From IMG/VR virus record IMGVR_UViG_3300048836_000712, positions 1 to 61,711 of that record: DNA of 61,711 nt; one strand, 5' to 3'. The translations under genes were made by a program, and so were the position numbers. This DNA is from a virus. Lineage: Duplodnaviria > Caudoviricetes. Shown one piece after another: positions 6,994 through 55,322 of this stretch. How positions within the stretch are numbered: the stretch's first letter is position 1; each line of letters opens with the position of its first letter. The notes below the pieces were generated by a model, which was given only the letters and a program-made list of their open reading frames with translations, was not told where the DNA came from and ran no database searches.

Positions 6994-7007
6994 TCCCAAA
7001 TAGCGGT

Positions 7008-11465: not shown

Positions 11466-11584
11466 TTCCCATTCCCGGCCAACTGGTAAAGACCACCCAC
11501 GGCACAAACATGCTACCGCACCACTGTAGACTTTGATAGACTTCTTCTGGGCATTCACCGCGTTCCGAAACACGGCTGGCTCAG

Positions 11585-11797: not shown

Positions 11798-11799
11798 CA

Positions 11800-18904: not shown

Positions 18905-18935
18905 TCTCGATATGCAGCTTTGAAGTTTCCACCGC

Positions 18936-19754: not shown

Positions 19755-19763
19755 AAGAAACCT

Positions 19764-35234: not shown

Positions 35235-36681
35235 CGGCGGGCTCCATTTCTTCGTCGGCGGGTTCTTCCGCGGGCGAGGTTGTGGGCTGCGCCGCCGCTG
35301 GCGCGAGGCCAAGTTCGCCTAGCAGCGCGATTTCCTTGGCACGCTGGCGAATCTGCGATTCCCAGTCCTGGCCGCGCCGCGCGTATTCGTCGGCGAGCGT
35401 GGTCGTATGATTGGCAAGGCGCGTCGCCTGCGCCGTCGCTTCCTTGGCGGGATCAACGTGCTCGTGCCCGTCCCAAAACCACTGGTGCGGCCATTCGGCG
35501 ATAGGCGGCAGGCCCGAAGGAAAGAGGCCTGGAATGAGAACCGCCTCGTCCAGCCAGGCGGCGAGAATGCGATCCAGCACTACGCATTCGAGGTGCGATT
35601 GCTCGACGCGGATCGCTTTGAAATACGTCTGGTGGTCGAGGCGACCGGAGGCGTAGTTGTATCCGCTGCTATTACAGGCCGCGATGTTATACGGCATGTT
35701 GAGGCAGCGGCTGATTTCGTTCAGAAGTTCGCGTTTGAATTCGCCATAGGTGGTCGCGGGCTGCTCCGCTTCCATCTGGCTCATCTTCCAGCCGCCCGGC
35801 ATCGTCAGGAGGGCACGCTTCTCGAGTTCGATCGGCTCGAACGGTTCGGCAGCGTCCGCTTCGCCGTTGGCAGGCGCGTCGGTGTAGAGGATGCCCGCGA
35901 AGTCGGCGGCTGTTTCCGCCGCTGCGAGTACCGCGAGCGTGAAGCGCCGCAGCTGCGCGAACAGCGGTAGCGCCGGCATGAAGTCGGGGATGCCGCGGGC
36001 CTGGCCCGGCCGGTCGGCGCGGAACCAGTGGATCATCGATTCGACCGGAACCTTGTCGTAGGTCCGCGCTGCCAGCGATGTCATGTCGCCGGGATGCTCT
36101 CGCAGGACGTGATACTCGGTCGGGTTGCCGGCAGCGTCGAATACGATGCCGTCGATGGAGTTCGGATCGGCGCGAAACAGATCGGGTGTGCATACTTGGT
36201 CCGCCTCAACGAGCCGCACATCGAGTTGAATGGCAGTCGGCAAGGCGGGGTTACTCGTCAGAATGCCGAACGCCTCGCCATCGGAAGCGCGGGCCATTCG
36301 CATGGTGCGGAGCTTCTCGGCCAGCCCAACCGCCTTCGACCACCGCATAAAGGCCTGCTCGATGCGGCTGTTGGCGTCGGAGTCGGTGGTGAGAAGTTGC
36401 AGCCGCGGGCCGGTGCCCACCACATCGTTGGCGAGCGTGAGTGCAATCCCGCGGGCGTAGCTGTTGTTGGCGACTTCATAGCGGGCCCGGTTCCGCAGCA
36501 CGCGGCGCACGTCGGGACTGTTGGCAGCGTTGGCCGAGAGGCCGTCGGCATTCGACCAGTGGCGGCGGTTGTCGGGATTCGTCGCCGCTGCGTCGTACTT
36601 GGCGCGCACGATCCGCACCGCCCGGCTGGTGGTCGGGGTTGTCGGCTTCGACGAAAAGAGGTTGGTGAGCCAGCCCAGCAC
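35224..36681 (-). CDS. Lambda-family portal protein
   Basis: YDAA, LRNRARYEVANNSYA, RPGQARGIP, NYASGR and VDPAKE. Confidence 0.93.
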   Translation of the reverse strand: MLGWLTNLFSSKPTTPTTSRAVRIVRAKYDAAATNPDNRRHWSNADGLSANAANSPDVRRVLRNRARYEVANNSYARGIALTLANDVVGTGPRLQLLTTDSDANSRIEQAFMRWSKAVGLAEKLRTMRMARASDGEAFGILTSNPALPTAIQLDVRLVEADQVCTPDLFRADPNSIDGIVFDAAGNPTEYHVLREHPGDMTSLAARTYDKVPVESMIHWFRADRPGQARGIPDFMPALPLFAQLRRFTLAVLAAAETAADFAGILYTDAPANGEADAAEPFEPIELEKRALLTMPGGWKMSQMEAEQPATTYGEFKRELLNEISRCLNMPYNIAACNSSGYNYASGRLDHQTYFKAIRVEQSHLECVVLDRILAAWLDEAVLIPGLFPSGLPPIAEWPHQWFWDGHEHVDPAKEATAQATRLANHTTTLADEYARRGQDWESQIRQRAKEIALLGELGLAPAAAQPTTSPAEEPADEEMEPADAA

Positions 36682-37741: not shown

Positions 37742-38760
37742 GTCCGATGTTTCGGCGAACTGACACGCATGAGAAATTCCGAACTGTCCTCTGGTATCCC
37801 GCTCCAGTCCAAATTCCCAGCCATCTTTTCGTGGATTAACTTTGTCGCATCCGGGTGAGGGCAGATCAACTTTAACGCAGCATTTCCCAGTGCATGAAAA
37901 GATGGGCCCCTAAAATTTGAATAGTTTAGCACTATATGGCCAGGATCGATTTGGTGAATTCGGCCATGCGCCTTTGCTGCGTCTGCCAGTTCTTTGGCGT
38001 TCGGCCAACGTCCTGGCGAACTAAAACGGCAGTTCGAATCGCCAGTAAGTATCTCGGTCGCTGTAGCATTAGCTTCCGTCTCTTGGACATCTGTGCTGTC
38101 CTTAGCGATATGCTCATCAACCAAGACTCCATTCTGCGACACATGTCCTCGCACGATATGGCCTAACTCGTGCGCAAGAATAAAAAGCAACCATGCCTCT
38201 TGCTTTGCATTCTTGCACAAAATGATCACAGGTCGGCCGTCGACCAATGCTGCCATACCGTCCATCTTCTTCGTAGCTCTAGGAAAACTGGCTACGTGAA
38301 GGACAGGAATTCCACGGCTCCAACACCAATCGAGAAGGCTTTCGAGGCTCACCCATGGAGCGCCTGCGCGTAGGATATCTTCGCGGATTTCGGACCCGTC
38401 AGCAGGTATCGTTCCCTTCCAAGGCGTCTGAATAGACGCCGCCGCGATTTGGGCGGCACGCGTGCAAATGGAGCGTGCAATGGCAAGATCGTCTGCTGAA
38501 ACGCCTTGAGTCTTCTTGAAATTGCATGGACCAAAGTCACGCAACTCAAGGGGTGCGGATTCGTCCTGCAGGCTCGTAAGGCTTAGACCAAGATGTCTAG
38601 CTAGAAGGAGAAGGCCTTCTTGGTAGCCTGATTGTGTTTGAGCGACGCTATCTTCCCACCAACTTGGCAACACCGTATTTTGGACAAACGGAGTGTCAAA
38701 GCCGACGGCGCGCAGTCGCTGATAGAGCCCTTTCATCGGATTTTGCGCCGCGGTTGTCAT
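37738..38760 (-). CDS. ImmA/IrrE-family metallopeptidase
   Basis: FILAHELGH and ETEANA. Confidence 0.85.
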   Translation of the reverse strand: MTTAAQNPMKGLYQRLRAVGFDTPFVQNTVLPSWWEDSVAQTQSGYQEGLLLLARHLGLSLTSLQDESAPLELRDFGPCNFKKTQGVSADDLAIARSICTRAAQIAAASIQTPWKGTIPADGSEIREDILRAGAPWVSLESLLDWCWSRGIPVLHVASFPRATKKMDGMAALVDGRPVIILCKNAKQEAWLLFILAHELGHIVRGHVSQNGVLVDEHIAKDSTDVQETEANATATEILTGDSNCRFSSPGRWPNAKELADAAKAHGRIHQIDPGHIVLNYSNFRGPSFHALGNAALKLICPHPDATKLIHEKMAGNLDWSGIPEDSSEFLMRVSSPKHRT

Positions 38761-38885
38761 AAGTCGTTTCCCCCTTTGCTCCAACCTTCGCAATCGCAAC
38801 TTTTGATCAGCGAATATTTACCTCCACGTCCTTGAAAAGGACGACGTGTTAAACCACGTAATTCTAACGCCGAATTGAACTTGCG

Positions 38886-39074
38886 TCAATTGCCGGTTCC
38901 GATCACGCGTTCCCAGGTCGTGATTCGTTGCCCGCAGTGTCGGCACTCTCTACGACGAACAACCTTTCCACCCCAGGCCGAGCGAGTGTAGACAACCCAG
39001 AAATGTCTGCAGCCACAGTTGTGGCATTGAAGGCCGCGGTCGCCATCACGGGGCATCTTCTGATCGTGCTTCAC
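38886..39074 (-). CDS. Zn-ribbon protein (NrdR-N/Ogr-like), possible late activator
   Basis: CHNCG...RRRECRHCGQRITTWE. Confidence 0.7.
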   Translation of the reverse strand: MKHDQKMPRDGDRGLQCHNCGCRHFWVVYTRSAWGGKVVRRRECRHCGQRITTWERVIGTGN

Positions 39075-40465
39075 AAATGCTTCCTCCGTTGAAGTTCGGC
39101 AAAACTAATCCGCTCACGCTTGACCGGTTGAACGGCTCCGCCGGCCCCCGCCAACACTGCCCCCTGAATCGACGCCGCTGCAGCACATCCAACGAGGCCG
39201 TCAAACCAGTGGTTGTCGCCTCTCTCTGGTCGCATCTTCCATTCGTCAACGGTCCGCCCGCGGCCTTCGGTTTTCACGCGGTACTCGGACGTTAGATGCT
39301 CGACGAAGAGACGGTGCTGTTCCGGGCCATCGCCGAAGATGGAGAGACAGCCACGGTCGCCCATCGGCACCACAAGCCGAGCGTGGACGAACGTCTTCCA
39401 GAAGTTGGTGTCGTACACGACGTGGCGTACCGCGCGCTTGCCGGCGACGTTCGGCATCCGCCAGTTGTGGCCGACGCGATCACCTGGTCGGCGCTTGTAC
39501 TCAGAAAACGGCTGGCTCGACGCGCCGACGAACCGTCCGTGGCTGGGCATGACGACTCCCGCGTGCGCCGACTGCCGGCAGAATTGGTAGACCACATCCG
39601 TACTCGATCCCCAGTTGGCGTCGATCAGACAGCGTTCAACCCGCAGCATCGCCCCGTCGTCGCGTCGCCATTCGCGTCCAAGATAGGAAGTGGTGAGCTG
39701 CTCGAGGCCAGCGTAGATGGCCCCTTCGATGCCGCTGGCCTTGGTCGCTAGCGGCAACGTGAGCCGTGCATCGCGGAGTGTGAAATACGGTCGCTGCTGG
39801 TCGGGGAATGTACCGTAGTCGATGACGTATCCGGTGAAGTCGTCCTCCCATGCGGCGACCACGAAGAACAGCAGGTTCGCCTGCACGTCGATAAACATGG
39901 TGACGTGGTTGCAGCCGACTGGCACGGCGCGGCGCTGCATTCGATTGGTCTTGCTGGCAATCTGGTCAGCTGAGAGTTCTTCAGACTCGGACGTTTCCGC
40001 AGGAAGCGGTTCGTTCTGGTACTCCGCGAAGAATGCTGCTTCGTCCTGAAGGCGAAGGTTCATCGCATGCTGGATCGCAGATAGCTCGTCGTGGTTGAAT
40101 CGCTCGGGCCAAGCGATCTCTGCGCCGGCGTCCATCGCCTCGCGATCGGCAGCATAGAACTCGGTTGCCAGACGAATGTCGCCGTGGGCGCGGAGACTTT
40201 CGCCACGCAATTCACCGTACCGCTGCCACTTCTTCTCTTCGACTGGGAACGAGTAAACCATCTTCGTCCGCTCGCCGTTCCACTCCGGGTGCTTGTCACG
40301 CGAGAGGATGTTGTCCGCCATGTCGCCAGGACGAATCACCGTGCAAGGCATGATCCCGCTGATCTTCTTGCCTGGTCCAGCCAAACCGAGAATGGCACCA
40401 GCCAAGATTCCCTCGCGCGTCGCGCACTGCGAAAGCGAACGAGCGGATTCGTCGGTCTGCGGATC
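39071..40465 (-). pseudogene. terL: Terminase large subunit, C-terminal part (fused in frame to the element B LSR)
   Basis: Starts at DPQTDESARS; FIDVQ and DNHWFD gpA-type nuclease motifs. Confidence 0.88.
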
Positions 40466-40489
40466 GTCCCCTCCCACGACCTGTGTGGA
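40466..40489 (-). other. att junction at the LSR end; attP half-site
   Basis: Minus strand TCCACAC-N14-GAC. Confidence 0.85.
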
Positions 40490-42217
40490 AGCGAAAGCTG
40501 ATTGCAAATCGGCGTACAGAATAATCGTGCCAGTGTTGGCGTCGGGTTCGATCTCGATGCGCTGCACGAAAGCTTCCACCAATTGCCGATCGGCCAGGGT
40601 GATTTCGGCCTTCGCAGCAATCGCATCCAGTCTCGCCAGTTGCTCACTGGCCCAATCGCGTAATTGCTGTTGAGTGAGCGCCGGTCGCGTCGTCGCGTCG
40701 CTGGCCTTCTGCTGGCTCATCAGCGCGTCGCGCTTCCGCTTCAGTTCCGTCAGCACGGTGTGAATGTCATCCAGGCCGTCGAAGGTCGGGTCGGCGAGCA
40801 AGGCAACGGTCGTCTTGATGCGGCGGTTGATCTGGTCGAGCTCGCGCCGTTGCTCCGAAGCGTTGGTGGCCGCAATCGGCTTCGAGACGGATTTCACAAA
40901 GGCGTCGATGGCCTGCTTCCGCGTCTTGGCGTCGCCCTGCAACACCTGGCCGATGACCTTCAGCACGAACTCATCGAGCGCCGGCCCCGGAATACGAACC
41001 AGGCCGCAAACATTCTTCCCGTAGCGATGGTAGCCGGAGCAGGTGTAATGCCGGTAAGGACCGCCAAGTCCCGGCTTCCGCCGGTGGTCGCGGACGGTCG
41101 TGAAGCTCATACCGCAGCGTTTGCAAACGAGCAGCGTCGAAACCAGCGTGCGCCGCACCGAGCGGGCTTTGCCGCCGGCGTCCCTGCGTTTCAGGATGCC
41201 CGCCTGAACGGCGTCGAACGTCTCCTTGGAAACCAAAGGTTCGTGAACGTTGGGGACGATGATCCAGTCCGACTCCTGGTTCTTAAAGTTACCGCGTTTG
41301 CCCTTCTTGGCCTTCAGCTTGCCGTTGGCGTCCATGCTGAACAGCGAGCCGCTTGTCCGCTTGTTGTAGGCCAGCGCTCCGTAGTACACCGGCGACCGCA
41401 GCATCTGCGCGATGTTGGACGTGTTCCATTTGAATCCGAACATCGTCGGCACGCCTTCTTCGTTGAAGCGCTCCGCGATGTACTTGAACCCGTAGCCCTT
41501 CGCGCTGAGGTCGAACATGCGCTGAATCGCTTGGACGTGCTCCGGCGTGCTGGGCGTATAGCGCACGATGTCTCCCTTCGCCTTGGCCACGTAAACGTCG
41601 CCGGCAATGGTGCGGACCAGCTTGCCCTCGGCGTCGAATTCGAGTTTGCTGCCATCGGCCATCCAACGCAGCGTGCGGACGACTTTGCCATCCGGCGTGA
41701 CGTGCTGCTTGTCGTAGCCGTAAGGCGGTTGCCCGCCCGGCGCGCTCTTGCGTTCGCGGATGTTGCTGATTTGACCGCGAATGGAATCCCGCGCGAGCTT
41801 CACCGAGTACTGCCGCGCTTGCCAGGACTTCACGCCCTGAATGAGTTCGCCTTCGTCGCCCTCGGGAATGCCGTCAGCGGTGAAAACTACATCGACGCCG
41901 GCGAGCCGCAAGCGATGCAGGTAATACCCGGTCTCATTCGTTCCGCCGCGCGAGAAGCGTGAAATGTCATAGCAGAGAATGGTGTCGAAGTCGCGACCGT
42001 TCTCGGCGGCAGCGATGATCTGTTCGAACGCATTGCGGCCCTTCGCGCTGGTGCCGGAGATTGCGTCATCGATGAACCACCGCACGATGCGGTAGCCATG
42101 CTCCTTGGCCCATTTCTCGACGTAGGCCTGCTGGTCGGGGATCGAGCGCTCCTGCATGTCGGTGCTGCGGCGGGCGTAGCCGACCGCAGGGATGCCACTA
42201 GAATTACGAGTAGCCAT
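40466..42217 (-). CDS. Large serine recombinase of element B (no stop; reads through into terL-C as far as 39071)
   Basis: YARRST, DISRFSR, PPYGY and CKRC...YTC; first part of the 1053-aa ORF. Confidence 0.92.
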
Positions 42218-42459
42218 TGCTTCCCTTTCCAATACAAAGGGTGGTCTTGGTCAGAGCCGCTTCGGCGTTGCGCGTCCGAGCGGCTCGTTTCGTTCACGAA
42301 CCACCACAGTTACCAGGACATCGCCGCAGTCATCCAGCCGGTACCAGCGCGCGCGGGTGGCCTGCGTTCGCGTCGCCGGGCCGGTCGGACGAGCGGTCCA
42401 ACCGTAAGAAAAGGCCGCGTCGTGCGGCCTCGTGGGCGACGTGGTGGCGAACCGGGGCA

Positions 42460-42693
42460 TCAGATGCCGGCCGTGGTGGCCACTGCGAACTCCCCGTCGC
42501 GCGGGCGGCGCTTGGCCGCACCACGCCAGCCTTTGATCGCGCGGAACAACCGGCACTTGGCGGCGATCTCCCGTTTGGTCGGCAGGTATTCGAGCGTTCC
42601 GTTCGTCGCCCGCGTCCATCGCCCGCGATCTACCCACCGGCCTTCGATCTGCCACTGGCGGACTTGGCCTGTCAACATCTTCTGCTCGTCCAT
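42460..42693 (-). CDS. Small YLPT-motif protein
   Basis: YLPTKREIAAKCRLFRAIKGW; similar to 6008-6220. Confidence 0.6.
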   Translation of the reverse strand: MDEQKMLTGQVRQWQIEGRWVDRGRWTRATNGTLEYLPTKREIAAKCRLFRAIKGWRGAAKRRPRDGEFAVATTAGI

Positions 42694-42814
42694 CGTTCTG
42701 GCTCCCAATTATGTGGTTTCGGCGGGCGGCCATTCCGCCCGCGGGAGTCACACAGGAGCCAGCAGTTCCGAAACATTGCAAGTCAATCGCTGCCAAATTG
42801 CTGAAGATTTTCAT

Positions 42815-43051
42815 CTAGGCTTCATCCTCGTCGACAAGTTCCGCCAGGGCGTCGTTCCACGGCAATCGGCCATCGCGGATCGCGGCCTCGATCCGTTTGA
42901 AGAACCGCCATTCCCACAGCGGGACGATGGCGACGTCCTCGCGCTTGTACCGCCGCACGATGATCGGCTCGTCCGTATTCGCCACGTGCTGGCAGGCGAT
43001 GCCCAGCCCGTCACGAAGGTGCGTAATGCTCATCTGGTGTTCGGTGGCCAT
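42815..43051 (-). CDS. Phd/YefM-like antitoxin-fold regulator
   Basis: MSITHLRDGL...VANTDEPIIVRR...VAIVPL. Confidence 0.7.
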   Translation of the reverse strand: MATEHQMSITHLRDGLGIACQHVANTDEPIIVRRYKREDVAIVPLWEWRFFKRIEAAIRDGRLPWNDALAELVDEDEA

Positions 43052-43349
43052 AAAAATTCGGACATGTACAAGAATAAAACACTGTCCTGATTTGCGACTG
43101 TTCCCGCACGCCTCGGGAAGACGGCCTCGGCGGGGAAGTACCTACGCGACTGTCCGGTTCGAATAGTGACCACCTGGCCCGACCATACGCCACACGGGCC
43201 AACGTGGCGCGACGGGTGGCCTCGGTCGTACCCATCAACCTCGCGTGCTTGCGCTTCGCGCGCTACGCATACAACCCGGCCCCGGGCGTGCGTTCGCGCA
43301 CGCACCGGGGGGGTACGGGGGGGCGCGCGTACAGAACACACAAAGCGCA

Positions 43350-44960
43350 TCACCTCTCCTCCGGTTGCGGTTCGGTGGCGAACTGCACTGGATGGGTAGC
43401 ACCGAATTTCCAGCGGTGAATCAACCCCTGCGACTCGGCCTGCTTGAGCAGCTTGGTCGCCTTGCGTTCCGACAAGCCGGCATCCATCGCCGCCTGCGTG
43501 AGGGCCAGGATCGTGGCCGGCGTCGAGCCGACGAACGACTCGGCGAACCGCTCGACGTCCCACTCAGGCTTGGCCGGCGCGTCGGGGGCGACGGGTTTGG
43601 GTTCCTTGCGCCGTCGCGGGCGCTCAGGCCGCAGGTCGGCCGGGTCGAGCGAGTCGTCGGGGGTCCAGACGGGAAACGTCCACCGCAAGCAGCGCGGCGA
43701 CAACGGGGGCCAGGACCGAACGGCAGCATCGAGCACGACCACGTCGTCCTGCTCATGCGGCCGCAGGATCAGGTGGGTATCGGTGGCCCGCGACTGCGAG
43801 CCCGCGCCGGCCCCGACGTCGGTCACGCTCTTGCCCGACTGGTTCCCCTTGCTGCTGTGATGCACCAGCGCGAAGGCGCACCCCAAGCGGGCCGCGAACG
43901 AGTCCAGCACGTTGTAGACCTGGGCCATCGTCCCGTTGTCGTTCTCGTCGGTGTCGCGCGGCATGAATCTGTAAAATGCATCGAGCACCACGAGCTTGAA
44001 CCGGCCCGGCGGCAACTGCTGGAAGTATTCCCCCAGGCCGAAGATGTCCTTGAGCCGGCCCCGCATGTTGGCGACGAACACGCGGTCGGCGACTTCCTCG
44101 AGCACAACGTCGCGGGCCTGCATCACCTTGGGGATGCGATGGGCGCTCGTCTCGCGGTGCAATTCGTTGTCGACGATCAGCACGTCCCCCCGCTCACACG
44201 CGAACGTATCAAGCCAGGAGCGTCCGGTGGCGACCGCCAGGGCCAGATCGGTCACGAGCCAACTCTTGCCGACTTTGCTGGTTGCGATCACGTTCATGGT
44301 TTCCCCTTCCCGCAGTAGGCCGTGAATCACCGGCCGGCGCAGGTCGGGGTTCTCGTTGATCAGTTGGCGAAGGCTCTTGACCGCCAGGGAAAGGGGCAGG
44401 TTGTTGGCCTTCGCCTCTTCCTTGGCGACTTGTTCGAGGCGGTCGAGCAAGGCGCGGCGCTCGGGGTCGATGCACTCCTCCGGCGCGGGCGGGCCCTTGA
44501 TCGTGGCCGGGTTGATTTCCGCGCCGGCCCACCGCCGCACCCGCTCGGCCCAAGGTTGCATCACCAGCAGGCGAATTGCCTCATCGAGAACTCCCCGGTC
44601 CTCGAACTTCTCCCAGCACTGGGCGGCAAGCTCGAAGGCCTGGACGCGGCCCCGATGGCGGGCGGCCTCAACGTCGTGCCCCGCGCGGTAGAGCACCTGC
44701 TCGGAATCGAATTCGGGATTCCCGTACAGCGCGGCGCTGGGAACCAGCACCTCGGCGCGCTCGCGGGCGTTGCGGCGATCCTGCCAGGCGGCTTCAATCA
44801 ATTCGCAGTCGGGGATGTCCCACTCCGCGACGACGTTCGCCGCCTCTACGAAGGCGGATCGATAGGCCCGCTCCGCTTCCATCAACAGAGGCGTGGAGGA
44901 AAAATCGGGACCGTCGTTGTAGAACCGCACCGTGTCAGCCGGCAGCGTCAGCGTTGGCAT
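43350..44960 (-). CDS. AAA_25/RepA-type replicative helicase
   Basis: ATSKVGKS, VDNEL, LVVLDAFYR, LVHHSSKG and GAGSQSR. Confidence 0.88.
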   Translation of the reverse strand: MPTLTLPADTVRFYNDGPDFSSTPLLMEAERAYRSAFVEAANVVAEWDIPDCELIEAAWQDRRNARERAEVLVPSAALYGNPEFDSEQVLYRAGHDVEAARHRGRVQAFELAAQCWEKFEDRGVLDEAIRLLVMQPWAERVRRWAGAEINPATIKGPPAPEECIDPERRALLDRLEQVAKEEAKANNLPLSLAVKSLRQLINENPDLRRPVIHGLLREGETMNVIATSKVGKSWLVTDLALAVATGRSWLDTFACERGDVLIVDNELHRETSAHRIPKVMQARDVVLEEVADRVFVANMRGRLKDIFGLGEYFQQLPPGRFKLVVLDAFYRFMPRDTDENDNGTMAQVYNVLDSFAARLGCAFALVHHSSKGNQSGKSVTDVGAGAGSQSRATDTHLILRPHEQDDVVVLDAAVRSWPPLSPRCLRWTFPVWTPDDSLDPADLRPERPRRRKEPKPVAPDAPAKPEWDVERFAESFVGSTPATILALTQAAMDAGLSERKATKLLKQAESQGLIHRWKFGATHPVQFATEPQPEER

Positions 44961-45111
44961 GCTCGCCCTCCATCCGCTTTGCTTCCCACTGGGCGAGCAG
45001 CCAAGCGGCGAGCGCCTCGACGCGCCGTTGGCGATAATCCTCATTCTCTTGGGGCGCGCAAAACGCCACGCGCACGTCGTAGTTGCCGACGCGCTCCGTC
45101 GTTTCGGGCAT
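44935..45111 (-). CDS. 58-aa hypothetical protein (not in the ORF track)
   Basis: AAGGAGG RBS; MPETTERVGNYDVRVAF...RRVEALAAWLLAQWE; overlaps the helicase start. Confidence 0.55.
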   Translation of the reverse strand: MPETTERVGNYDVRVAFCAPQENEDYRQRRVEALAAWLLAQWEAKRMEGEHANADAAG

Positions 45112-45282
45112 GACCGTTCCTCCTTTGCCGAGTGCTGCGGGAAGCAGCGAGAGGGGCGCGGCGGCCCGCAGGGGTCTGCCTGCGGACCGCGGTCGCCAAG
45201 CGGCGAGGTCGGTCGGTGGATCGGTAGGTTGGTTCGGTGGGGGGCGGTTGGATGACTACGGGTATCCCGAAGTGAGAAGCGA

Positions 45283-47124
45283 TCAGGCTTCCCCCTTGGC
45301 CTTGTAGGCGGCACGGTGATCGGCCAGGGCCGCACCGAAATCGTGATACACCCGCCACGATGCGGCCAGCGTGTTGGGGTCGGCATCGAACCCGAAGAAC
45401 TCGACGGTGGGGGACTGCTTCCCTTGGAGGAACGCAACCACCAGCGCGGCGTCCGCCGGGCCGGCGAACAGATACCACGCCTTGCCGCTCGTGCCGTCGA
45501 ACCGCTCGTCGTTCGACAGACGCGGCTCGACCTCTAGCGACACCGAATTCTTCAGCGCGTTGCCGGTCGGCAGGTCGTTGTTGGCCCGCTGGATGAAGTC
45601 GCTGAGCAGCAACTCCTTGGCGGTCTGTTGCAACTCCGGCGGCACCAGGAGCGTGCGCGGCCGGATGTCGAGGTCGCGGTTCTCGTCGTCCCGTTGCGCC
45701 AGCATCTTGGCGATGCCGGCGGCGAGCGAAGTCGAACCGAGCACCGTCCCCGCGCCGGCGTCGTAGTTGCCGTGGCCGGTGCTGAAGAAGTTGCCGGTGT
45801 TCGCCAGCAGCACCTTGTAGACTAGGTCGGAGAGCGAACGCATCGCGGCCCGCCCCAGCGAGCGGGCCGTGTCGTCGAACAGGCTGAGGTCGTCGTTGAT
45901 GATGTCCCGCCGGTCGATGCTGAGCATCTTGGCGAAGGTGTCGATGGAGAAACCGTACATCGCCTCCTTCACCGAGCCGTGCTTGATCTCGCCGCCGGGC
46001 GGAAGCTGCGTCAACTCCCCGGTATCGCTGATGCGGATGCCGGTGTGTTGCTTGAAATCGACGGCCGACTTCACCGAGGCGAAGGCCCGCCAGGTGGCCG
46101 GCGACTCGGTGTAGGACTCGAACAGCAGCTTGTTGGCCGCGTCCCCCAGGGCGGTCGGCAACGAGTAGGTGGAGAGCGCCGCCTTGATCAGCCCGTCGCG
46201 GCCGTGCGGGGCGTCGCGGCCGTCGATTACGAGCGCCGCACGGCACAGATCGACCAGGTTCGTCGCCCGCAGGTCGCGGGCCCGCTGCGCGGCTTCCGGC
46301 CCCAGGTGCTTCTCGGCCAGGTGCTCGCTGTTCATGTGGGCCAGGATCGCCGCCTCGAGCACCAAGCGCGAGGCGGGCTCCTCGCGGGGGTGCGTCGAGA
46401 GCGGGATCGGCCGCCGCGCCCGCAGCACTTCCAGTTCCGTCCGCTGAGCGTCCCAGCCCTCGGCGATGGCCTTGGCTTCGATGTTGCCGAACCGCCCGCC
46501 GCAGGCCTTGCGGATGGCGTGGATGCGAGTCGTTTCCGCCAGGGCGTCGGCCCGAATCTGCTCGGCGGTGAGCGTTTCCGTTTGAGACATGTTTTGCTCC
46601 TTCCCGTTGGCCGCAATCGAGACCGACGTACCGGCGTCGGCCCCGATGGCGACGATGCTGACCTCCCGCAGCACGCCCGCACGCACGAGCGTGAACCCGC
46701 TGGCCGGCGCTTTGAGGGCGCGGCCGTTGACCTCCACCGTCTCGCCGCCCCGCACCCGCTGGTAGTCGGTGGGTGCGACGCCGACCGATGCCTGGAAGCG
46801 GAACCCGCCCTTGGCCAGATCGACCACTTGGCGAGCCGCATCCGTTGAAGGCGTGATGGTGCCTTGCACCAGCAACTTGCCGTTGGCGACCACCGCTTTG
46901 CCATGCCCAACAATGCCGGCTAGCGAAGCATTGTGATCGGCCAGGATGCTCACCTGCTCGGCCGAGGCGTCGATGCCGCCGAGTTCAATGGCAACCGGGC
47001 CCCAGCCGGGCACAACCATCAGTCCGCCGGTATAGGCGACGATGCTCACCGCCGGCGACTTGCCCGTTGCCTGAATCTCGACCTCTGCGGCCGAGAGCAA
47101 AAGTTCATCAATTGCAACGGTCAT
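45283..47124 (-). CDS. Element B prohead protease-major capsid fusion
   Basis: ILADHN, FQASVG, EVSIVAIGAD, GEIKHG and HDFGAALADHRAAYKAKGEA. Confidence 0.92.
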   Translation of the reverse strand: MTVAIDELLLSAAEVEIQATGKSPAVSIVAYTGGLMVVPGWGPVAIELGGIDASAEQVSILADHNASLAGIVGHGKAVVANGKLLVQGTITPSTDAARQVVDLAKGGFRFQASVGVAPTDYQRVRGGETVEVNGRALKAPASGFTLVRAGVLREVSIVAIGADAGTSVSIAANGKEQNMSQTETLTAEQIRADALAETTRIHAIRKACGGRFGNIEAKAIAEGWDAQRTELEVLRARRPIPLSTHPREEPASRLVLEAAILAHMNSEHLAEKHLGPEAAQRARDLRATNLVDLCRAALVIDGRDAPHGRDGLIKAALSTYSLPTALGDAANKLLFESYTESPATWRAFASVKSAVDFKQHTGIRISDTGELTQLPPGGEIKHGSVKEAMYGFSIDTFAKMLSIDRRDIINDDLSLFDDTARSLGRAAMRSLSDLVYKVLLANTGNFFSTGHGNYDAGAGTVLGSTSLAAGIAKMLAQRDDENRDLDIRPRTLLVPPELQQTAKELLLSDFIQRANNDLPTGNALKNSVSLEVEPRLSNDERFDGTSGKAWYLFAGPADAALVVAFLQGKQSPTVEFFGFDADPNTLAASWRVYHDFGAALADHRAAYKAKGEA

Positions 47125-47726
47125 TTCACCACCTCCTGGGGCTCAAGCTTAGCGCCCTTGGGGTAAAACCAGACGTAGGCGTAATCATCAGGGTCTTCGG
47201 CGGGTTCGATCACCGTCGCCAGTCCCAACGGGTCAAAACTCAACCCGACGCTAACGCCGTAGCGCGCGGCGGCGACGCGATGTGCTTTGACACATTGGCC
47301 AAATCGCAGATTGCATACCCAGCAGAAGTGCGTCCACGAACCCCAGTACTCATGCTCATAGAGCCATTCGGCGGCTGCATCGATGTCCTCCTTCTCCCAG
47401 AACATGATGTGGATGGACGGAACGTAATCGACGTTGCCCTGGTCGTCGGTCACCAGCGAGTGTCCGCGGCGGGGATTGCAGATGCCCCGCTCGACTAGGT
47501 GCTGCAGCATCGGCTCGTCGCACTTGAGCCCGCGCAGCCGCAGCTCGCGGAACGCTCCTTCGGTGTGCTTCGGGTACTGGAGCGACGAACTCGAGTTGTA
47601 ATGGTTCGGATTGGGAATGTCCGAACCGGGCAACAAACTGATCAGGTGATTGAAGTCTTCCCGCAGCCAGTAGTAGCGCTTCTTGCTTTCCTGCCGCGCG
47701 GGCAGTTCGTCAGTCAGCTTTGGCAT
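47121..47726 (-). CDS. Conserved pre-capsid protein (homolog of 3304-3822)
   Basis: PKHTEGAFRELRLRG, WEKEDIDAAA and VIEPA. Confidence 0.75.
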   Translation of the reverse strand: MPKLTDELPARQESKKRYYWLREDFNHLISLLPGSDIPNPNHYNSSSSLQYPKHTEGAFRELRLRGLKCDEPMLQHLVERGICNPRRGHSLVTDDQGNVDYVPSIHIMFWEKEDIDAAAEWLYEHEYWGSWTHFCWVCNLRFGQCVKAHRVAAARYGVSVGLSFDPLGLATVIEPAEDPDDYAYVWFYPKGAKLEPQEVVK

Positions 47727-48261
47727 TCTTGTGCTCCTTTCGTAGTGCTTCCAATTCTCGTTCCACGGTCCGCAAGCCGATGCTGAGTTCGTCAGCAATC
47801 TCGGCGTTGGAATAGCCCGCCATGCGCAGGCCGATGACCTTGCGCCGGCGCGGCGGCAATGACGCGAGATAGTCGTTGAGTCGAGCTATCTCGGCGGGGT
47901 CGCCCTGCGCCCGTTCGTGCCGCGAGGGGGTGTCCCAAGCACGAACGGCGTCTTCACTCCAGAGATTCCCTGATTGGTCGATGGATGGGCTGGTGAGTAG
48001 GTCGGATTGGGATTTCGGTTCGTGGCGTCGTTGGGATCGATAGTCGCGGAACAAGTTTGAGATGCGGGCGACCATGCGGTTCTTGGCCAGACCAAGGTCG
48101 CCTTCGTCTTGCCAGACCTGCCAGCCGGCAAGGAACAGGTCTTGCGCCGCGTCTTCCATGCGGTGCTCGTCCCAGTTCAGTTGGCGTCGCCTCTTCAGCT
48201 TCCGCACCAAGGCTTGGGCGAACTTGAAAAGGTCTTCAGGACTATCGCGTTCTTCAACCAT
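47710..48261 (-). CDS. ECF sigma-factor-like regulator
   Basis: EDAAQDLFL (region 2-like) and LPPRRRKVIGLRMAGYSNAEIADELSIGLRTVER (region 4). Confidence 0.8.
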   Translation of the reverse strand: MVEERDSPEDLFKFAQALVRKLKRRRQLNWDEHRMEDAAQDLFLAGWQVWQDEGDLGLAKNRMVARISNLFRDYRSQRRHEPKSQSDLLTSPSIDQSGNLWSEDAVRAWDTPSRHERAQGDPAEIARLNDYLASLPPRRRKVIGLRMAGYSNAEIADELSIGLRTVERELEALRKEHKNAKAD

Positions 48262-48513
48262 TCGTCCTCCATCGAGGCCATCATCGGCCCCTATCCAACT
48301 AATCCACGCGAGGGCGTCGGAACCCGCCAAGGATTTTCCGCTCGCGGGCACCGTGCCCGTCTAACCCCTTATTTCCTGCGGCAGGGCGAGTTCGTAAAAG
48401 CACGGCCGGAAAATTTTCTCCCACGCCCTTGACAGATGATTGTGCGGAGATACCTGATCGGCTAAAATTCGTCCAACTATTGAGGGATCGATTCTTCTTA
48501 CCGAGGTTGGAAC

Positions 48514-49557
48514 ATGAAGCCTACTCGGGGTTTAGCCTGTCCAGTGATGGTCCCTTCCAGGATCGATTGGGAGCGGGATTATTCAGAATTGACCACAGCC
48601 GATCTGGCGGCGATGTCGGATGAGCAATTGGCGGCGGTCGATCCGCTGGCGATAAACCTCATCGTGGCCAAAGGCCTCCCGTCGCTGGCCGACCTCGACA
48701 TCCGGCCCTACCAGGACATCGTGGACGGATGGGTGCTGGATTTGAACCGCCGCTGCCTGCCGCAATGGGAGCCGCACTTCCATCAATCGCCCCAAGACTG
48801 GGAGAACGACATTCGGTACTTCCGCTTGGGCATGGTCTGCCAGTACCTCGATCTGGAAGTCGGCATTCAGTACAACCAGCACCAGCGCGACGTATCCCGG
48901 ATCCTCTACACCAATCCGTCGGACGTTTTTCTGAACGGCGTGCTCGATACCCGCGAGGGCACCTGTGGCAACCTAGCCGCTCTGCACGTAGCGATGGGCT
49001 GGCGGATGGGTTGGCCCGTCTCGCTCGCCTGCGTCGTATCGCATTACATTCTGCGTTTCGACGATGGCGAGGTAATCTACAACATTGAGGCGACGCAGGC
49101 TGGTCATGGCGGGTTCAAGTCCGACCCCGACGATTACCTCATCAGAGAGAAGAAACTGCCGGCAATTGCAATCACGAGCGGTTCCGATCTACGCGCCGTG
49201 CGGCCGCGTGAAATGCTGGGCATCTTCATCAGCCTTCGGGCGCGGCACCTTCAAGACGTAGGCAAGCAGCAGAACCGCGAGGAACTGATGCTGGCGTCCG
49301 AGGCCGACTGGCTGTTGGCCCGGCACCTTTTCCCGCGCAATCGGGCCATTTACAAACACCAGATGGTCATCTCGGCCATGCGCGGCGATCATCTATTCAA
49401 CGAAGACGAAGGCGGTCATCCCAATACGTTTAGTTTGTTGCTCGACGAGATCGCGAGCCGTCGCGGCCGCAATCAGATCGTCGCGCAGCAAGAACTCACT
49501 CTGCCAAACTCCAAGGCCATCGACGAACTCTTCTCGGCTATCGAGGTACGCATATGA
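48514..49557 (+). CDS. Transglutaminase-like (SirB1-like) protein
   Basis: FLNGVLDTREGTCGNL...SHYILRF...NIEAT. Confidence 0.75.
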   Translation: MKPTRGLACPVMVPSRIDWERDYSELTTADLAAMSDEQLAAVDPLAINLIVAKGLPSLADLDIRPYQDIVDGWVLDLNRRCLPQWEPHFHQSPQDWENDIRYFRLGMVCQYLDLEVGIQYNQHQRDVSRILYTNPSDVFLNGVLDTREGTCGNLAALHVAMGWRMGWPVSLACVVSHYILRFDDGEVIYNIEATQAGHGGFKSDPDDYLIREKKLPAIAITSGSDLRAVRPREMLGIFISLRARHLQDVGKQQNREELMLASEADWLLARHLFPRNRAIYKHQMVISAMRGDHLFNEDEGGHPNTFSLLLDEIASRRGRNQIVAQQELTLPNSKAIDELFSAIEVRI

Positions 49558-50327
49558 CAACCACCCTGACCGCTCCCGTCCGCAATCGCTCCACCAATCG
49601 TCTGAGTCGTTTCGCTCCGATGCTTGACCAGCTGGCCGATCCACTTGGATATGAGGCCGGCGACGCGAATCTGCGCCGGTACGTCGGAAATTCGCCGACG
49701 GACTTAACCGATCCAACTGGACTTAGCCCATGGAAGGGTATCGCTGGAATTCTAGGGAAAAAATGGACTGCGGAAACTTGCGAGCGAGCCGGAAAAACGC
49801 TCGCAACTGAACTGTTGCAGAAATTAGCCCAACAACGCCCAGATTCGCAAAAGGCTCAAGAAATACTGCGAGCTCTAAAGAACATGGGTTGGGTTGAAGA
49901 AGCGTTAGGAAAGGGATCAAAAGCAGGTAAGTCACTTGAAGAGGGTGGGGGAATTGTTCTGCGCGAGATGGAGAATGGGAAACCGACCGGACGGTTTCTG
50001 GAATGGTATCCCGGGGAAGGGCCCCACCACAAAGATCCTCACTGGAAATTTAGTAGTGGAGAGTCTGGAACATTGCGAACCACCATCACAGGAACAGTCG
50101 CGGCAATTGCAATTGCAGTCGTTCCTGGTGCAGCCCAGGCGAGCGAAGGTGATTGGAATGGCGCTGGTAGGGATGTGTTTGTCGAGGTGACGCCACTGGC
50201 TTGGTCAAAAATGATGTGGGAAACGCTGGGTTCTTTTTTTGATTTCTGTGAAAGCGATCTGTACGGCGAGGATTACCACCGTGAGATGGAGGAATACCGA
50301 AAGGAGTACTGGAAAAATAAGAAGTAA
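49554..50327 (+). CDS. Rhs core-end fragment plus C-terminal toxin-like domain
   Basis: DPLGYEAGDANLRRYVGNSPTDLTDPTGL, then a lower-GC domain with GPHHKDPHWK. Confidence 0.8.
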   Translation: MTTTLTAPVRNRSTNRLSRFAPMLDQLADPLGYEAGDANLRRYVGNSPTDLTDPTGLSPWKGIAGILGKKWTAETCERAGKTLATELLQKLAQQRPDSQKAQEILRALKNMGWVEEALGKGSKAGKSLEEGGGIVLREMENGKPTGRFLEWYPGEGPHHKDPHWKFSSGESGTLRTTITGTVAAIAIAVVPGAAQASEGDWNGAGRDVFVEVTPLAWSKMMWETLGSFFDFCESDLYGEDYHREMEEYRKEYWKNKK

Positions 50328-50374
50328 ATTGCGACCAAGTACTTTCGAGATGCATTTGGTAGGCCTAAACAACA

Positions 50375-50779
50375 ATGAGTAACGCCGCTAGCAAGCTAAA
50401 TTTGATCCAGTTGCGTAAAAGTCTGCAACAAGCGGCCCTGCCAGCAGACCGTCAAATCGCGCGCCTACAAGGCTTTGACGTAGCATTTGAAGTTGCCGAT
50501 GACTTTGACAACTGGTGCCGCTGGGCGTTGAATAGTGCAGACACACAATTGACGGATGAGCAGCGGTCCCTACTTATCGAGTTGAACAATCGTCTCAATC
50601 AAATGAGCGGCGAACACAACTCCGATCTCTGGACCGATGACGCACTTCGGTCGCGAAACGAATGGGATGAAGTGCGGCGTGAGGCTCGATGTATTCTCGA
50701 TTCCTTTAGCTGGCCGATTGAAGATGCGGAGAAATCGGAAATAGAAGTGGTTCGAGTTAATCCTAGCTCGAACACCTAA
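50375..50779 (+). CDS. Putative immunity protein
   Basis: Small acidic ORF directly after the toxin-like gene. Confidence 0.55.
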   Translation: MSNAASKLNLIQLRKSLQQAALPADRQIARLQGFDVAFEVADDFDNWCRWALNSADTQLTDEQRSLLIELNNRLNQMSGEHNSDLWTDDALRSRNEWDEVRREARCILDSFSWPIEDAEKSEIEVVRVNPSSNT

Positions 50780-50852
50780 ACTTCAGTTTCTGTTTGAGTG
50801 GGAAACCCCAGTATTGGTTATTCTCCCCCGCTCCCACGCGAACGCGACCCGC

Positions 50853-50875
50853 TCCACACGGCTACCCATCCTGTC
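50853..50875 (-). other. att junction on the terL-N side; attP half-site
   Basis: Minus strand GAC-N13-GTGTGGA, the inverted match to TCCACAC at the other junction. Confidence 0.85.
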
Positions 50876-51748
50876 GAGCACCACGAGCGACGGGCGAACG
50901 GTGTGGCCGTCGGCGCGCTTGTACTTCATGCCGCGGATGCGGCCTGTAATTCCCGCGACTTTGATGATCGCACCGCTGCCCACACTGCCGGGCATCGTCG
51001 GCAGTACGATCTCACGAGCGGTCCAGCCGATGTGCGTCCGTTCGCCTTTGTAGAGCTGGCCGTTGCATCGATTGGCGATCCCGTCGAGGCACTGGATTGG
51101 ATAGACGACCTCGGGGAAGTCTTCGAGCAGCAGGTCGTTGCCGTCGAGCTCCATCTTGATCGAGTCGAGCATATCCATCGCATGGCCTTCGTCCGATCCG
51201 ATCAGGCAGACGAAGTCGCGGTGCCCGTACAACACCGCCCAGATACAGGCGCACTCACAGATGGTGGTCTTGCCCGAGCCTCGCGGCATCGCCATTGCGA
51301 ACAAACCGCCGCGTAACACCGCCTGCTCGATCTTGCCAATGACCTTCAGATGGTCCGGCGACCACGGCAAGTGAAACGTGAGCGGGAAATACGACTCGCA
51401 GAAGAAGCGGAAATCAGAAGCAGCCTGCTTCTTGCGTTCGATATTGACGACGGCCGGCAGGTCGCCGATGTCACGGCCTGCGATGGCGAGCGCGACGTTC
51501 CTCGCCCGAGCTCGATCCTTCAGCTTCTCGTAGGGATCGCCGTCGGGTTCGGGTTTTGGTGCGTGCCGCAGCTCGACGAGCCACGCAGCGTAACGCAGTA
51601 AATCGACAAACCGGGCGTCGCCAATGCGGAGGCCGGCTCGCGTGCGATGGCGATGCAGCTGGCGCTCGTTGATGACTTCGCCGAGCGGCGTCGAGTTGAG
51701 CAGCCGGCAGAGTTCGCTCGGTCGTAGCTTTCGCGGATCAGTCGCCAC
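50873..51748 (-). pseudogene. terL: Terminase large subunit, N-terminal ATPase part
   Basis: Walker A MPRGSGKTT; ends at Walker B RPSLVVLD, then a 29-aa foreign tail to 50783. Confidence 0.88.
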
Positions 51749-51962
51749 GCCCCATCTCCTTCACCAGCCACGCGGCGTAGTGGACCAGGTTGATCGTTCC
51801 GTCTGCGTTCGTTGGTGCGCCGGCCGCTACGTCATCACGCAGCATCGATTCGGCAATCGATGGAGCCCCTACCCGAGCCAACAGACGGGCTGCGGCGGGC
51901 AACGCCAGAGCGCTTGGGTTCAAGCCAGAACCGGGCGAATTCCCTTGGCTTTCCGCCATCAT
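51738..51962 (-). CDS. Small HTH-like protein at the terminase small subunit position
   Basis: AAARLL...GAPTNADGTINLVHYAAWL; overlaps the terL start. Confidence 0.6.
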   Translation of the reverse strand: MMAESQGNSPGSGLNPSALALPAAARLLARVGAPSIAESMLRDDVAAGAPTNADGTINLVHYAAWLVKEMGRGD

Positions 51963-52081
51963 TTGGTCCCCGAAAAAAAGCTGCGAAATCGAGCCGGAAT
52001 CCGCTGGATGTTCTCTGGAAACAGAGGTAACTGTGTCAGCGTTGAATGACCTAAACCATTCCCGCCAAAGGAGAAACGACC

Positions 52082-52414: not shown

Positions 52415-52516
52415 GCCGAAACGCTGGTCGGCCCCGGGCCGGCGAGCGTCGCGGCGGGTGGTTCCCGCCGCCTGATGATGGCAGCCTTTCCATCCGCATT
52501 TCCAAGGAGAACGATC

Positions 52517-53913: not shown

Positions 53914-55209
53914 TCATTTGCGTTCCGCCTTCCGCCCCGTGAATTTCTCCCAGCGCTGGACGATCACGTCGCAATAGGGTGGATCAAGCTCCATGAGGAA
54001 CGCCTTGCGGCTCGTCTGCTCGCAGGCGATAAGCGTCGAACCACTCCCGCCGAACAAGTCCAGAACGTTCTCGCCGATGCGCGATGAATACTGCATCGCT
54101 CGCACCGCCAGCTCGACGGGCTTCTCCGTGAGGTGGACCATCGACTGCGGATTGACCTTCTTCACATGCCAAAGGTCGGTCGCGTTGTTCGGGCCGTAGA
54201 ACTGATGCCCAGCGCCGAGCCGCCAACCGTAGAAGCAGATCTCGAACGCGCCCATGAAATCCTTGCGCGTGAGCACAGGATGCTGCTTGTCCCACACGAT
54301 GCCTTGGCTGAAGTACAGATCGTGCTTCTTCAGGAACGGTGGATAGTTCCCGAGGTTGGCGTACCCACCCCAGATATAGAAACCACGTCCGGCCTCCAGC
54401 ACGCGGGCCATGTTGCCGAACCAGGCATCGAGCAGTTCGTCGAATGCTTCATCGGTCACGAAGTCGTTTGCAAGCGGTCGATCCTTGGCTCGCATCTTCT
54501 TGTGGGTCGCCTTCGCTTTCTCCGGGTGGCGTTCCAGATCGAACTTCTGATGATGCTTGTTCGGGTTCGCAAAGCTGCTGTTGCCGGCGGCGATGGCATT
54601 GTTGCTGCGCGGCTCGACCTTCACGTTGTAGGGAGGGTCCGTGTTCACGAGTTGGATCGTCGCGCCGTCGAGCAACCGATCCACATCCGCTGGCTTCGAC
54701 GAGTCGCCGCATAGCAATCGGTGATCGCCGAGAATCCAGAGGTCGCCCGGTTGCGTGATTGCTTCGTCTGGCGGGGCTGGCACATCGTCGGGATCGGTGA
54801 GGCCTTCCTGCAAATCGCCGCCGAGCAGCTTGGCGAGCTCGTCCTGGTCGAATCCCAACAGGCCGAGGTCGTAATTGGCCGCTTGCAATTCACCAAGCTC
54901 GATCGGCAAGAGATCGTAATTCCAGTCCGCGAGCGATGCGGTCTGATTGTCCGCGATCCGATACGCCTTGATCTGCTCGGACGTGAGGTCCTTGGCGACA
55001 TGAACGGGAACCTTTTCCAGGCCCAGCTTCTGCGCCGCCTTGAAGCGGGTATGCCCGCAGATGATTACCCCCTCCGCATCGACGACGATGGGTTGACGGA
55101 ACCCGAACTCGCGCAGCGACGCCGCCACGGCATCGACCGCGTCGTCATTCACCCGCGGGTTGTTGGGATAGGGTTTGACCCGCGATACGGGCCAGAGATC
55201 GATCTTCAT
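53914..55209 (-). CDS. ParB-N fused N4/N6 DNA methyltransferase
   Basis: NNPRVND, GHTR, TDPPYNV, HLTEKP and DLFGGSGST. Confidence 0.92.
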   Translation of the reverse strand: MKIDLWPVSRVKPYPNNPRVNDDAVDAVAASLREFGFRQPIVVDAEGVIICGHTRFKAAQKLGLEKVPVHVAKDLTSEQIKAYRIADNQTASLADWNYDLLPIELGELQAANYDLGLLGFDQDELAKLLGGDLQEGLTDPDDVPAPPDEAITQPGDLWILGDHRLLCGDSSKPADVDRLLDGATIQLVNTDPPYNVKVEPRSNNAIAAGNSSFANPNKHHQKFDLERHPEKAKATHKKMRAKDRPLANDFVTDEAFDELLDAWFGNMARVLEAGRGFYIWGGYANLGNYPPFLKKHDLYFSQGIVWDKQHPVLTRKDFMGAFEICFYGWRLGAGHQFYGPNNATDLWHVKKVNPQSMVHLTEKPVELAVRAMQYSSRIGENVLDLFGGSGSTLIACEQTSRKAFLMELDPPYCDVIVQRWEKFTGRKAERK

Positions 55210-55322
55210 TGAGCGCACCTTTAGCACGGAGAAACGTGCTGGTGGCTCCGAGTAGCGGAGTGCGACCCCGGCAATCCAGGGCGGCGGACAGTGGGACCAG
55301 AAACCGACTGTCTCTAGATTAG

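Follow-up and report, generated by a model that had tools for sequence, protein, structure and literature searches.

A satellite-like element inserted in the terminase gene of its probable helper prophage: a possible excision-gated packaging switch

Introduction

Satellites that reside inside the prophages on which they depend have been described in enterobacteria as helper-embedded elements, the HE-PICIs (Tommasini, Mageeney & Williams 2023, PMC10111431). The available text of that report counts 491 elements at 14 sites that lie within nine late genes with lambda cognates. The sites include A:Terminase_1:245 as well as positions in the capsid gene E, the portal gene B, and the protease gene C, and the integrases, all of the tyrosine type, fall into subclades that track the sites. 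On induction, the composite was excised and replicated before the satellite itself excised, and the arrangement was read there as "regulated gene integrity," meaning that expression of the late gene has to await excision. Here we describe an arrangement of this kind in IMG/VR record IMGVR_UViG_3300048836_000712, a linear, metagenome-derived viral contig of 61,711 bases (CheckV completeness estimate, 87%) that was analysed over its whole length (the window). In it, an insert encoding a large serine recombinase (LSR) and a capsid protein splits terL, the large terminase gene of the surrounding prophage. That the finding is real and not an accident is well supported. In our view the insert is likely a phage satellite resident within its helper prophage, one that excises, borrows helper functions, and gates packaging; the excision and the gating are what we infer from the anatomy.

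Elements that split a gene and later restore it are familiar from other settings. SPbeta in spsM, the skin element in sigK, and phi10403S in comK each use an LSR to split a gene reversibly, and timed excision restores it. Those elements split host genes, for host development or infection, whereas the gene split by the present one belongs to another virus, presumably to the benefit of the satellite. Satellites that carry LSRs are also known. The capsid of the Vibrio cholerae PLEs is not known to be self-encoded in the same way. As far as the available parts of the sources go, PLEs resemble the present element in bearing an LSR and in depending on a helper phage, but they sit in chromosomal repeats, not in the helper, and that helper is lytic (PMC9638900, PMC9410903); neither PLEs nor those marine VEIMEs that use serine recombinases are described, in the literature searched, as embedded in helpers. 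In the literature that we searched we found no helper-embedded satellite of the LSR type, and the papers there that use the term "helper-embedded" concern neither serine recombinases nor Planctomycetota; the supplementary files of the HE-PICI report may list more hosts, sites, or integrase types. The first-pass annotation of this DNA had known of no capsid-bearing satellite that gates the terL of its helper. The novelty that it suggested must be narrowed because HE-PICIs in late genes, the terminase gene included, were published in 2023 together with an induction experiment (PMC10111431, as seen in part).

Results

The terminase gene lies on the minus strand in two pieces. Its N-terminal half (terL-N, residues 1-292; 50873..51748, -; phrog_38, 5.6e-21) carries the Walker A motif PRGSGKT and ends in LVVLD. 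It is read within an open reading frame (ORF) at 50783..51748 (-) that runs to ...RPSLVVLD, with the GAC codon at 50875-50873, and then continues through 29 unrelated residues to a stop. The C-terminal half (terL-C, residues 293-756; 39071..40465, -) opens with DPQTDESARS at 40465, is translated as the tail of the recombinase ORF, and contains a gpA-type nuclease (GpA_nuclease PF20454, 1.3e-25; hhalign to lambda gpA 377-594, probability 95.7). GAC stands ahead of both junctions, and there are no stops or frameshifts in either half. The insert between them, 40466-50872 (10,407 bp; GC 0.62), separates D292 from D293 of LVVLDD, and the two halves sum to 292 + 464 = 756 amino acids. These readings agree with the first-pass annotation, which had located both ends of the broken gene and the GAC core at each, had reported both halves to be open, and had predicted that removal of the insert would restore a TerL of 756 residues with LVVLDD.

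A search of IMG/VR with terL-N yielded 80 loci, and in 76 of these residue 292 is joined directly to the first residue of terL-C. Thus, 756 residues is the length of the natural TerL, with no codon gained or lost. The closest locus, L006, is 96% identical in terL-N and 95% identical in terL-C and has an intact terL. Two of the remaining four (L018 and L032) are occupied at the same codon. L064 is uninterrupted across the site and loses its frame ~25 codons further on, and L059 ends at a contig edge.

The first-pass annotation had placed the insertion in the Walker B codons of terL. The position within LVVLDD stands; the identity of that motif is probable. An AlphaFold model of intact TerL from an alignment of 36 homologues at 40-56% identity (pLDDT 90.8) replaced an earlier prediction from 17 close sequences (pLDDT 43). 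It matched solved large terminases with probability 1.00, PhiV-1 first (8dgc_E, 8.2e-12), then Sf6 gp2, HK97, T4 gp17, and D6E. In the model, a strand at 149-153, PRGSGKT, and a following helix form the strand-loop-helix (149-173) of a Walker A arrangement, and a strand at 288-291 (LVVL) lies directly before D292 and D293. Both PRGSGKT and LVVLDD are invariant or nearly so among the 36 homologues, in which only 28 columns are invariant, including R156, G159, K160, D292, D293, and Q295. Comparisons by sequence gave no Pfam match for terL-N alone at E <= 0.01 and only non-significant P-loop matches when intact TerL or a profile was searched against the PDB, and hhalign of the TerL profile with lambda gpA aligned the nuclease domain but not the ATPase domain. 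The motif, its invariance, the predicted strand, and the fold class together make Walker B the probable site of insertion. Given a crossover in the Asp codon of LVVLD|DPQTDE, the ATPase domain would therefore be cut at its probable Walker B motif.

The same motifs appear to have been found by other mobile sequences. Homologous TerLs carry in-frame inserts of ~350-390 residues at residues 292-296 (P0043, P0056, P0058) or at residue 160 (P0007, P0012, P0123). Three of these six (P0043, P0058, P0007) were run through Pfam, and all three contained a LAGLIDADG domain, so that the inserts look like inteins at the P-loop and LVVLDD motifs. The likeness lies in the attraction of selfish elements to the same invariant TerL motifs. 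The difference is that an intein is removed at the protein level and never interrupts function, whereas the satellite would be removed at the DNA level.

The LSR gene occupies the left end of the insert (40466..42232, -; phrog_95, 1e-94), and its last codons form the left arm of attP. Its domains follow the canonical order (Resolvase PF00239 at 16-153, Recombinase PF07508 at 230-347, Zn_ribbon_recom PF13408 at 365-427), and R17, R18, S19, T20, D21, and Q23 are invariant in eight aligned relatives (R-R-S-T-D-x-Q). We take the N-terminal R-x-S-x-x-Q to be the catalytic serine motif of an LSR.

When the insert ends are rejoined, they read TCCACAC-N14-GA-N14-GTGTGGA, whose 7-bp arms, 15-21 nt from the GA dinucleotide, form a perfect inverted repeat. 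The symmetry noted in the first-pass annotation is thus borne out, and the chance of seven complementary positions at a fixed offset is ~4^-7. The attB-like join in the restored terL has a 5-bp repeat 13-17 nt from the same GA. The attP arms are kept in six other attR junctions and in three distinct other attL junctions (four loci, L018 and L086 being one contig). In L088, the bases beside the GA differ between attL and attR, and the GA alone is common to both; the stretch of identity thus spans 2 bp, in line with expectation for a serine integrase. The locus accordingly shows the features by which LSR systems are recognised, namely a 2-bp core, att sites that are imperfect inverted repeats, and an attP longer than attB. 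Judged from these sequences, the LSR appears to recognise as attB the codons for the invariant LVVLD|DPQTDE, with crossover at the GA core within the Asp codon.

No stop closes the recombinase ORF ahead of the junction; the frame continues into terL-C, giving a single ORF of 1053 residues (39071..42232, -), a detail absent from the first-pass annotation. At the opposite end of the satellite (50783..50872, -), behind terL-N, lie the right arm of attP and 29 codons that would form the native C-terminal tail of the recombinase in the circle. With attP located within the 3' end of the recombinase gene, a tail of ~29 residues is exchanged on integration, in frame, for part of the target protein. 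The circular form would encode a recombinase of ~614 residues ending in the conserved tail G-S-R-V-E-R-V-x-F-x-W-x-R-G. With G-S/R-R-V-E-R-V-x-F-x-W-x-R-G, the motif is kept in elements of the terL, methylase, and capsid classes described below, and its codons vary synonymously (CGG/CGC/CGA/AGG, GGG/GGC/GGA, TTC/TTT). In the integrated form the fused part would be 464 residues of TerL, ~114 of the methylase, or 11-13 of the capsid protein, and a public protein library holds a recombinase::target fusion ORF of this sort (P0022).

The unintegrated arrangement, a recombinase ORF closed by the conserved tail, is present in L104, a contig of 2,174 nt, and the metagenome contig L177 (6340 b) encodes a complete 624-residue LSR with an intact attP and the native tail. 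A strict attP motif had no match in the viral contig collection and matched two contigs in the metagenome contig collection, one of them L178. Two of these contigs have unusual surroundings. About 2 kb past its LSR, L177 carries a co-oriented terL in which the Walker B site is unoccupied and a premature stop falls near residue 357; this may be a captured late gene or another kind of insertion. L178 (2963 b) holds the last ~30 LSR codons, the attP motif, and the tail and abuts, on the other strand, the start of the gene for a 683-residue YD/RHS-type repeat protein. It is a remnant or chimera, and we give it little weight.

The remaining genes of the insert are those of a satellite-like element. 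Next to the LSR gene are three small ORFs of 187, 67, and 75 residues (42251..43238, -) with no family match, which by inference only can be put forward as candidate directionality-factor genes. They are followed by a primase/helicase gene (43350..45437, -; AAA_25, 1.2e-32; phrog_2597, 6.6e-38), which probably starts downstream of the position listed, and a 613-residue fusion of protease and major capsid protein (45283..47124, -; Phage_capsid_4, 1.7e-42; phrog_4523, 1.2e-72) that is 36% identical to the corresponding fusion of the helper. Upstream of the capsid gene lie an ORF of 225 residues (47121..47798, -) that is conserved in 19 loci and gives only a weak helix-turn-helix lead (Atlas score 0.86) and a 213-residue ECF-sigma-like regulator (47710..48351, -; Sigma70_r4_2, 8.9e-09; phrog_1740, 2.8e-13). 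The LSR, primase, capsid, and sigma-like genes are co-oriented with terL. Three cargo ORFs that adjoin attL run on the strand opposite to terL and have a GC content of 0.55: one of 347 residues with a weak transglutaminase-like core (48514..49557, +; PF13369, 1.8e-07), found in four related loci; one of 257 residues with no family match (49554..50327, +), in a low-GC variable zone; and one of 134 residues, also without a family match (50375..50779, +). A scan for promoters and terminators found nothing above shuffled sequences.

Thus, the insert has integration and replication functions of its own (the LSR and the AAA_25 primase/helicase) and an incomplete set of virion genes, the protease-capsid fusion being the sole structural gene among the 10 ORFs scanned. 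The scan of these ORFs gave no match to portal, terminase, tail, lysis, or AlpA-like families, and PADLOC had no match in the cargo. The capsid-bearing satellite of the first-pass annotation is upheld to this extent: the element is satellite-like in its protease-capsid fusion, primase/helicase, sigma-like regulator, and LSR and in having no portal, terminase, or tail match. Its dependence on a helper would follow from the same inventory. The inventory also bears on a different purpose for the insertion, namely that the element enters the terL of related phages, whether resident or incoming, to block their packaging, in defence of the cell or of itself, with its own transfer secondary. Satellites do generally interfere with their helpers (PMC9618062, in the portion available), and attB is conserved in many unoccupied phages (the 76 of 80 loci above). 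An element without a terminase of its own would, however, need TerL for packaging, and no defence family is found in its cargo. We therefore regard interference as the primary role as quite improbable.

The same terL codon is occupied in 12 other contigs, as seen by in-frame reading from recombinase into terL-C or from terL-N into the tail (L086, which is the same contig as L018, and L087, L088, L089, L091, L092, L032, L097, L099, L118, L148, and L173). Both junctions are present in L086, L088, and L097, with inserts of 10.3-10.8 kb. The first-pass annotation had proposed a search for related prophages with an intact terL or with insertions at the same codon, and had held that its reading would fail if homologous elements were never found in terL. 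Both kinds of relative exist, the former at 76 of 80 loci and the latter in these 12 contigs. The record is a metagenome-derived contig, and its junctions could in principle be an assembly artefact or a chimera. The recurrence of the same junction architecture in 12 independent contigs from two collections, the presence of the fusion ORF P0022 in the protein library, and the Logan contigs of other runs that reach the junctions already contradict this explanation, which we consider to have virtually no chance of being correct.

A query with the LSR recovered 10 loci in IMG/VR and 80 in GTDB genomes. The latter are nearly all in metagenome-assembled genomes (MAGs) of Planctomycetota (Planctomycetaceae, Pirellulales, Gemmataceae, Phycisphaerae), with Roseimaritima sediminicola JC651 as the single isolate, and Planctomycetota are the hosts of this family of satellites and helpers. 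Sequence words of the element occur in Logan contigs of 20 runs from 16 studies of activated sludge, sludge, wastewater, soil, and landfill; the source sample may be that of the run with the most of the element. Of the 48 loci with at least 6 kb of upstream sequence, 40 have a capsid gene upstream of the LSR. This synteny bears on the suggestion that the insert is not a packaged satellite at all but an integrative element with a capsid-like gene, or the remnant of a second small prophage. Packaging has not been observed, and no cos or pac sequence shared with the helper was found, as this suggestion would have it. Against it stand the conserved order of capsid, primase, and LSR genes, the absence of tail, portal, terminase, and lysis matches in the ORFs scanned, and the size of ~10.3-10.8 kb in the four contigs with both junctions. 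It would surprise us if this suggestion proved right.

The relatives also indicate movement. L086 and L088 are 99.6% identical in LSR DNA and 78.4% identical in terL-C, and L091 and L092 are 99.4 and 78.7% identical, respectively. The converse is seen for L092 and L173, with 73% identity in the LSR and 86% in terL-C. These discordant identities indicate that the same satellite occurs in different helpers and that different satellites occur in similar helpers.

Related recombinases have been aimed at other genes. In a quick IQ-TREE run with 77 recombinases, from which fifteen partial or frameshifted rows were excluded, the terL-targeting recombinases form one clade (SH-aLRT 99) of seven terL rows and one row that appears to be off target; its sister is a clade of 17 rows rich in methylase targets. 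Some methylase rows were missed by the automatic labels. The methylase class comprises 11 loci in which a ParB-N6/N4 DNA methylase is split at D323 and the LSR reads into its C-terminal 114 residues; the N-terminal part lies ~10 kb upstream on the same contig in 4 of the 11 (partial in two, cut by the locus end). In a capsid-end class of five loci, the LSR reads into the last 11-13 codons of the helper capsid gene, and both junctions could be read in L095. Insertion at a different terL site is seen in L123. Two more classes are defined by the peptide that follows the junction, SSxHS (26 loci, Phycisphaerae) and SRVKP (six loci), with no target gene recognised. L151 has a portal gene nearby on the other strand, and some further loci have sites that were not recognised or that lie outside phage genes. 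In all readable classes the GA at which crossover takes place belongs to an Asp or Glu codon, and the element shares the orientation and reading frame of its target. Because only in-frame targets are recognisable, this pattern is no evidence of selection for frame.

In the MAG contig L096, an LSR of the terL-targeting clade (75% identical) reads ...GGE|DTQTGG..., compared with ...GGD|DPQTDE... here. The reading ends 30 residues on, and the vicinity lacks a terL; either an off-target pseudo-site or a decayed remnant may explain it.

Discussion

On induction of the helper, the LSR and a directionality factor would excise the element, restoring an intact terL and, on the circle, a full-length recombinase gene. 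The satellite would then replicate by its own primase/helicase and build heads from its own protease-capsid fusion, and the portal, terminase, and tail would be taken from the helper. There would be no functional TerL before excision, and packaging by the helper would thus be delayed until the satellite leaves. The choice of a conserved helper gene as attB would guarantee co-residence with a compatible helper.

Several results weigh against this mechanism. Four Logan runs were aligned to 38500-52500; all of these data are assembled contigs, which cannot show absence. Neither an excision product of this copy nor a circle junction was seen in them, so that the check for excision junctions proposed in the first-pass annotation came out negative within that limit. 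One contig of run X1 (depth 3.7; 65 nt on the shorter side) does join 40465 to 50874, skipping 10,408. Its Asp codon is GAT, not GAC, and it is therefore an unoccupied variant and not an excision product. Run X4 contains a diverged unoccupied terL. The ends of several Logan contigs coincide with the junctions or lie a few bases from them, which fits more than one context in these samples and proves nothing. No directionality factor was recognised, and blastn between satellite and helper found only weak similarity of the capsid genes and no shared cos- or pac-like DNA. Late read-through from the helper would cross the three cargo genes backwards, because they are antisense to terL. At the insertion site itself, the Walker B assignment was made from motif, invariance, predicted strand, and fold class, and the ATPase domain stayed unaligned in the PDB sequence searches and in hhalign. 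Finally, L148 combines a frameshifted LSR with a truncated terL-C, and therefore some composites decay.

These results raise the question of whether the insertion is a dead end, in which excision is no longer possible, the prophage is inactivated, and both partners are decaying. The missing excision junction of this copy and the decayed L148 would fit such a state, and many HE-PICI helpers look truncated (PMC10111431, in its available text). Here, however, both terL halves and the LSR, capsid, and primase genes are open and full length. Moreover, of the 11 relatives with an attR junction, nine keep a full-length terL-C (463-469 residues); one runs off the contig end, and one is truncated. Near-identical elements in different helpers likewise argue for ongoing mobility. 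A dead end is therefore unlikely, and embedding in a helper followed by excision is the better account. As to the gating proposed in the first-pass annotation, the part that follows from anatomy stands, namely that no intact TerL can be made until excision; excision of this copy has not been seen.

How close, then, is this system to the HE-PICIs? As described in the available text of PMC10111431, HE-PICIs likewise have no replacement sequence in attP, leaving the late gene broken until excision; have terminase, capsid, portal, and protease genes among their targets; carry in many cases a capsid gene and a primase; and occasionally occur as off-target copies. They differ in using only tyrosine integrases, of the 11capE clade and with AlpA alongside, and were surveyed from one enterobacterial integrase. 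The present element, by contrast, uses an LSR with a 2-bp core, resides in Planctomycetota, and carries attP within the recombinase ORF, so that recombinase and target are fused in frame; the ParB-methylase, among the targets of its family, is non-structural, and the family is known here from sequence. With its serine recombinase and no AlpA-like match, the element resembles an HE-PICI in how it works but falls outside that family. By means of a serine recombinase, the present system has converged on an arrangement already known. What appears to be new is the LSR type, the phylum, and an attP inside the recombinase ORF whose conserved tail is swapped on integration. Embedding in helper late genes has come about two or more times, in phyla far apart and through recombinases of unrelated families, and is therefore likely a general and successful strategy.

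The position of attP invites a further idea, in which the swap of recombinase C termini is a built-in state switch. The circular and integrated recombinases would differ in direction, stability, or timing, tying excision to late expression of the helper, and several invariant Asp or Glu (GA-) codons in helper genes would have become targets of this one design. We offer this tentatively, as a possibility that we do not favour; a regulatory effect of the swap is only hypothesised. Mycobacteriophage BPs provides a partial parallel, in that its attP lies in a coding sequence and integration alters the C terminus of a protein (PMC4557955, as far as its available text goes). There, however, the ORF encodes a repressor and the phage uses a tyrosine integrase, whereas here the ORF is the recombinase's own. 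The design raises the question of whether the C-terminal swap controls directionality. If the switch exists, the element would sense its own integration state and tie excision to helper late expression.

To our knowledge, almost no phage biology has been described for Planctomycetota. The present family provides a defined helper-satellite system for this phylum, and one often met in metagenomes of activated sludge, wastewater, and soil. It is also a natural series of closely related LSRs whose attB sites are mapped, differ from one another, and lie in conserved coding motifs, which makes it useful for studying how the specificity of an LSR is re-aimed.

Other Features of the Record

The helper prophage encodes a lambda-type portal (35224..36681, -) and its own protease-capsid fusion (33213..35312, -), together with a tape measure protein and a Prim-Pol/D5 primase. 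Its ParB-N6/N4 DNA methylase gene (53914..55227, -) is intact here; satellites of the sister clade insert at its D323 codon. A third LSR gene (60481-61710, +), divergent from the Prim-Pol/D5 primase gene and 3'-open at the record end, is probably the integrase of the helper prophage. A circular record in which this gene continues at base 1 was considered and rejected, as the 5'-open ORF there is unlike an LSR C terminus.

Between terL-C and the portal gene lie two genes of low GC content (37112-39074, -; GC ~0.49-0.53), one of them weakly M78-peptidase/RmrA-like, beside an ORF for a 62-residue NrdR-like zinc ribbon. Because this gap varies from ~0.5 to 4.4 kb in relatives, it looks like a moron hot spot. 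Adjoining the tail genes are four to five glycosyltransferase and FkbM-methyltransferase genes (21676-25485, -), through which the prophage may modify the cell surface.

The left end of the record (1-9251, +) holds a second satellite-like module, cut by the contig start. It contains a protease-capsid fusion (3866-5818, +) that is 31% identical to both other capsids, a 527-residue ORF without assigned function, and an LSR gene (7404-9251, +) that is 30% identical to that of the insert and ends in ...SRGD followed by 33 residues and a stop. This 33-residue tail after GD matched nothing, and attP-like symmetry was not found for it. The module is followed by a defence-like block (9252-20936) comprising an 880-residue protein with a C-terminal DeoR/WYL-like helix-turn-helix, a type I restriction-modification system (11800-18904) with two HsdM, one HsdS, and one HsdR, and an FRG-domain protein that matches the PADLOC candidate PDC-S15 (1.2e-45).

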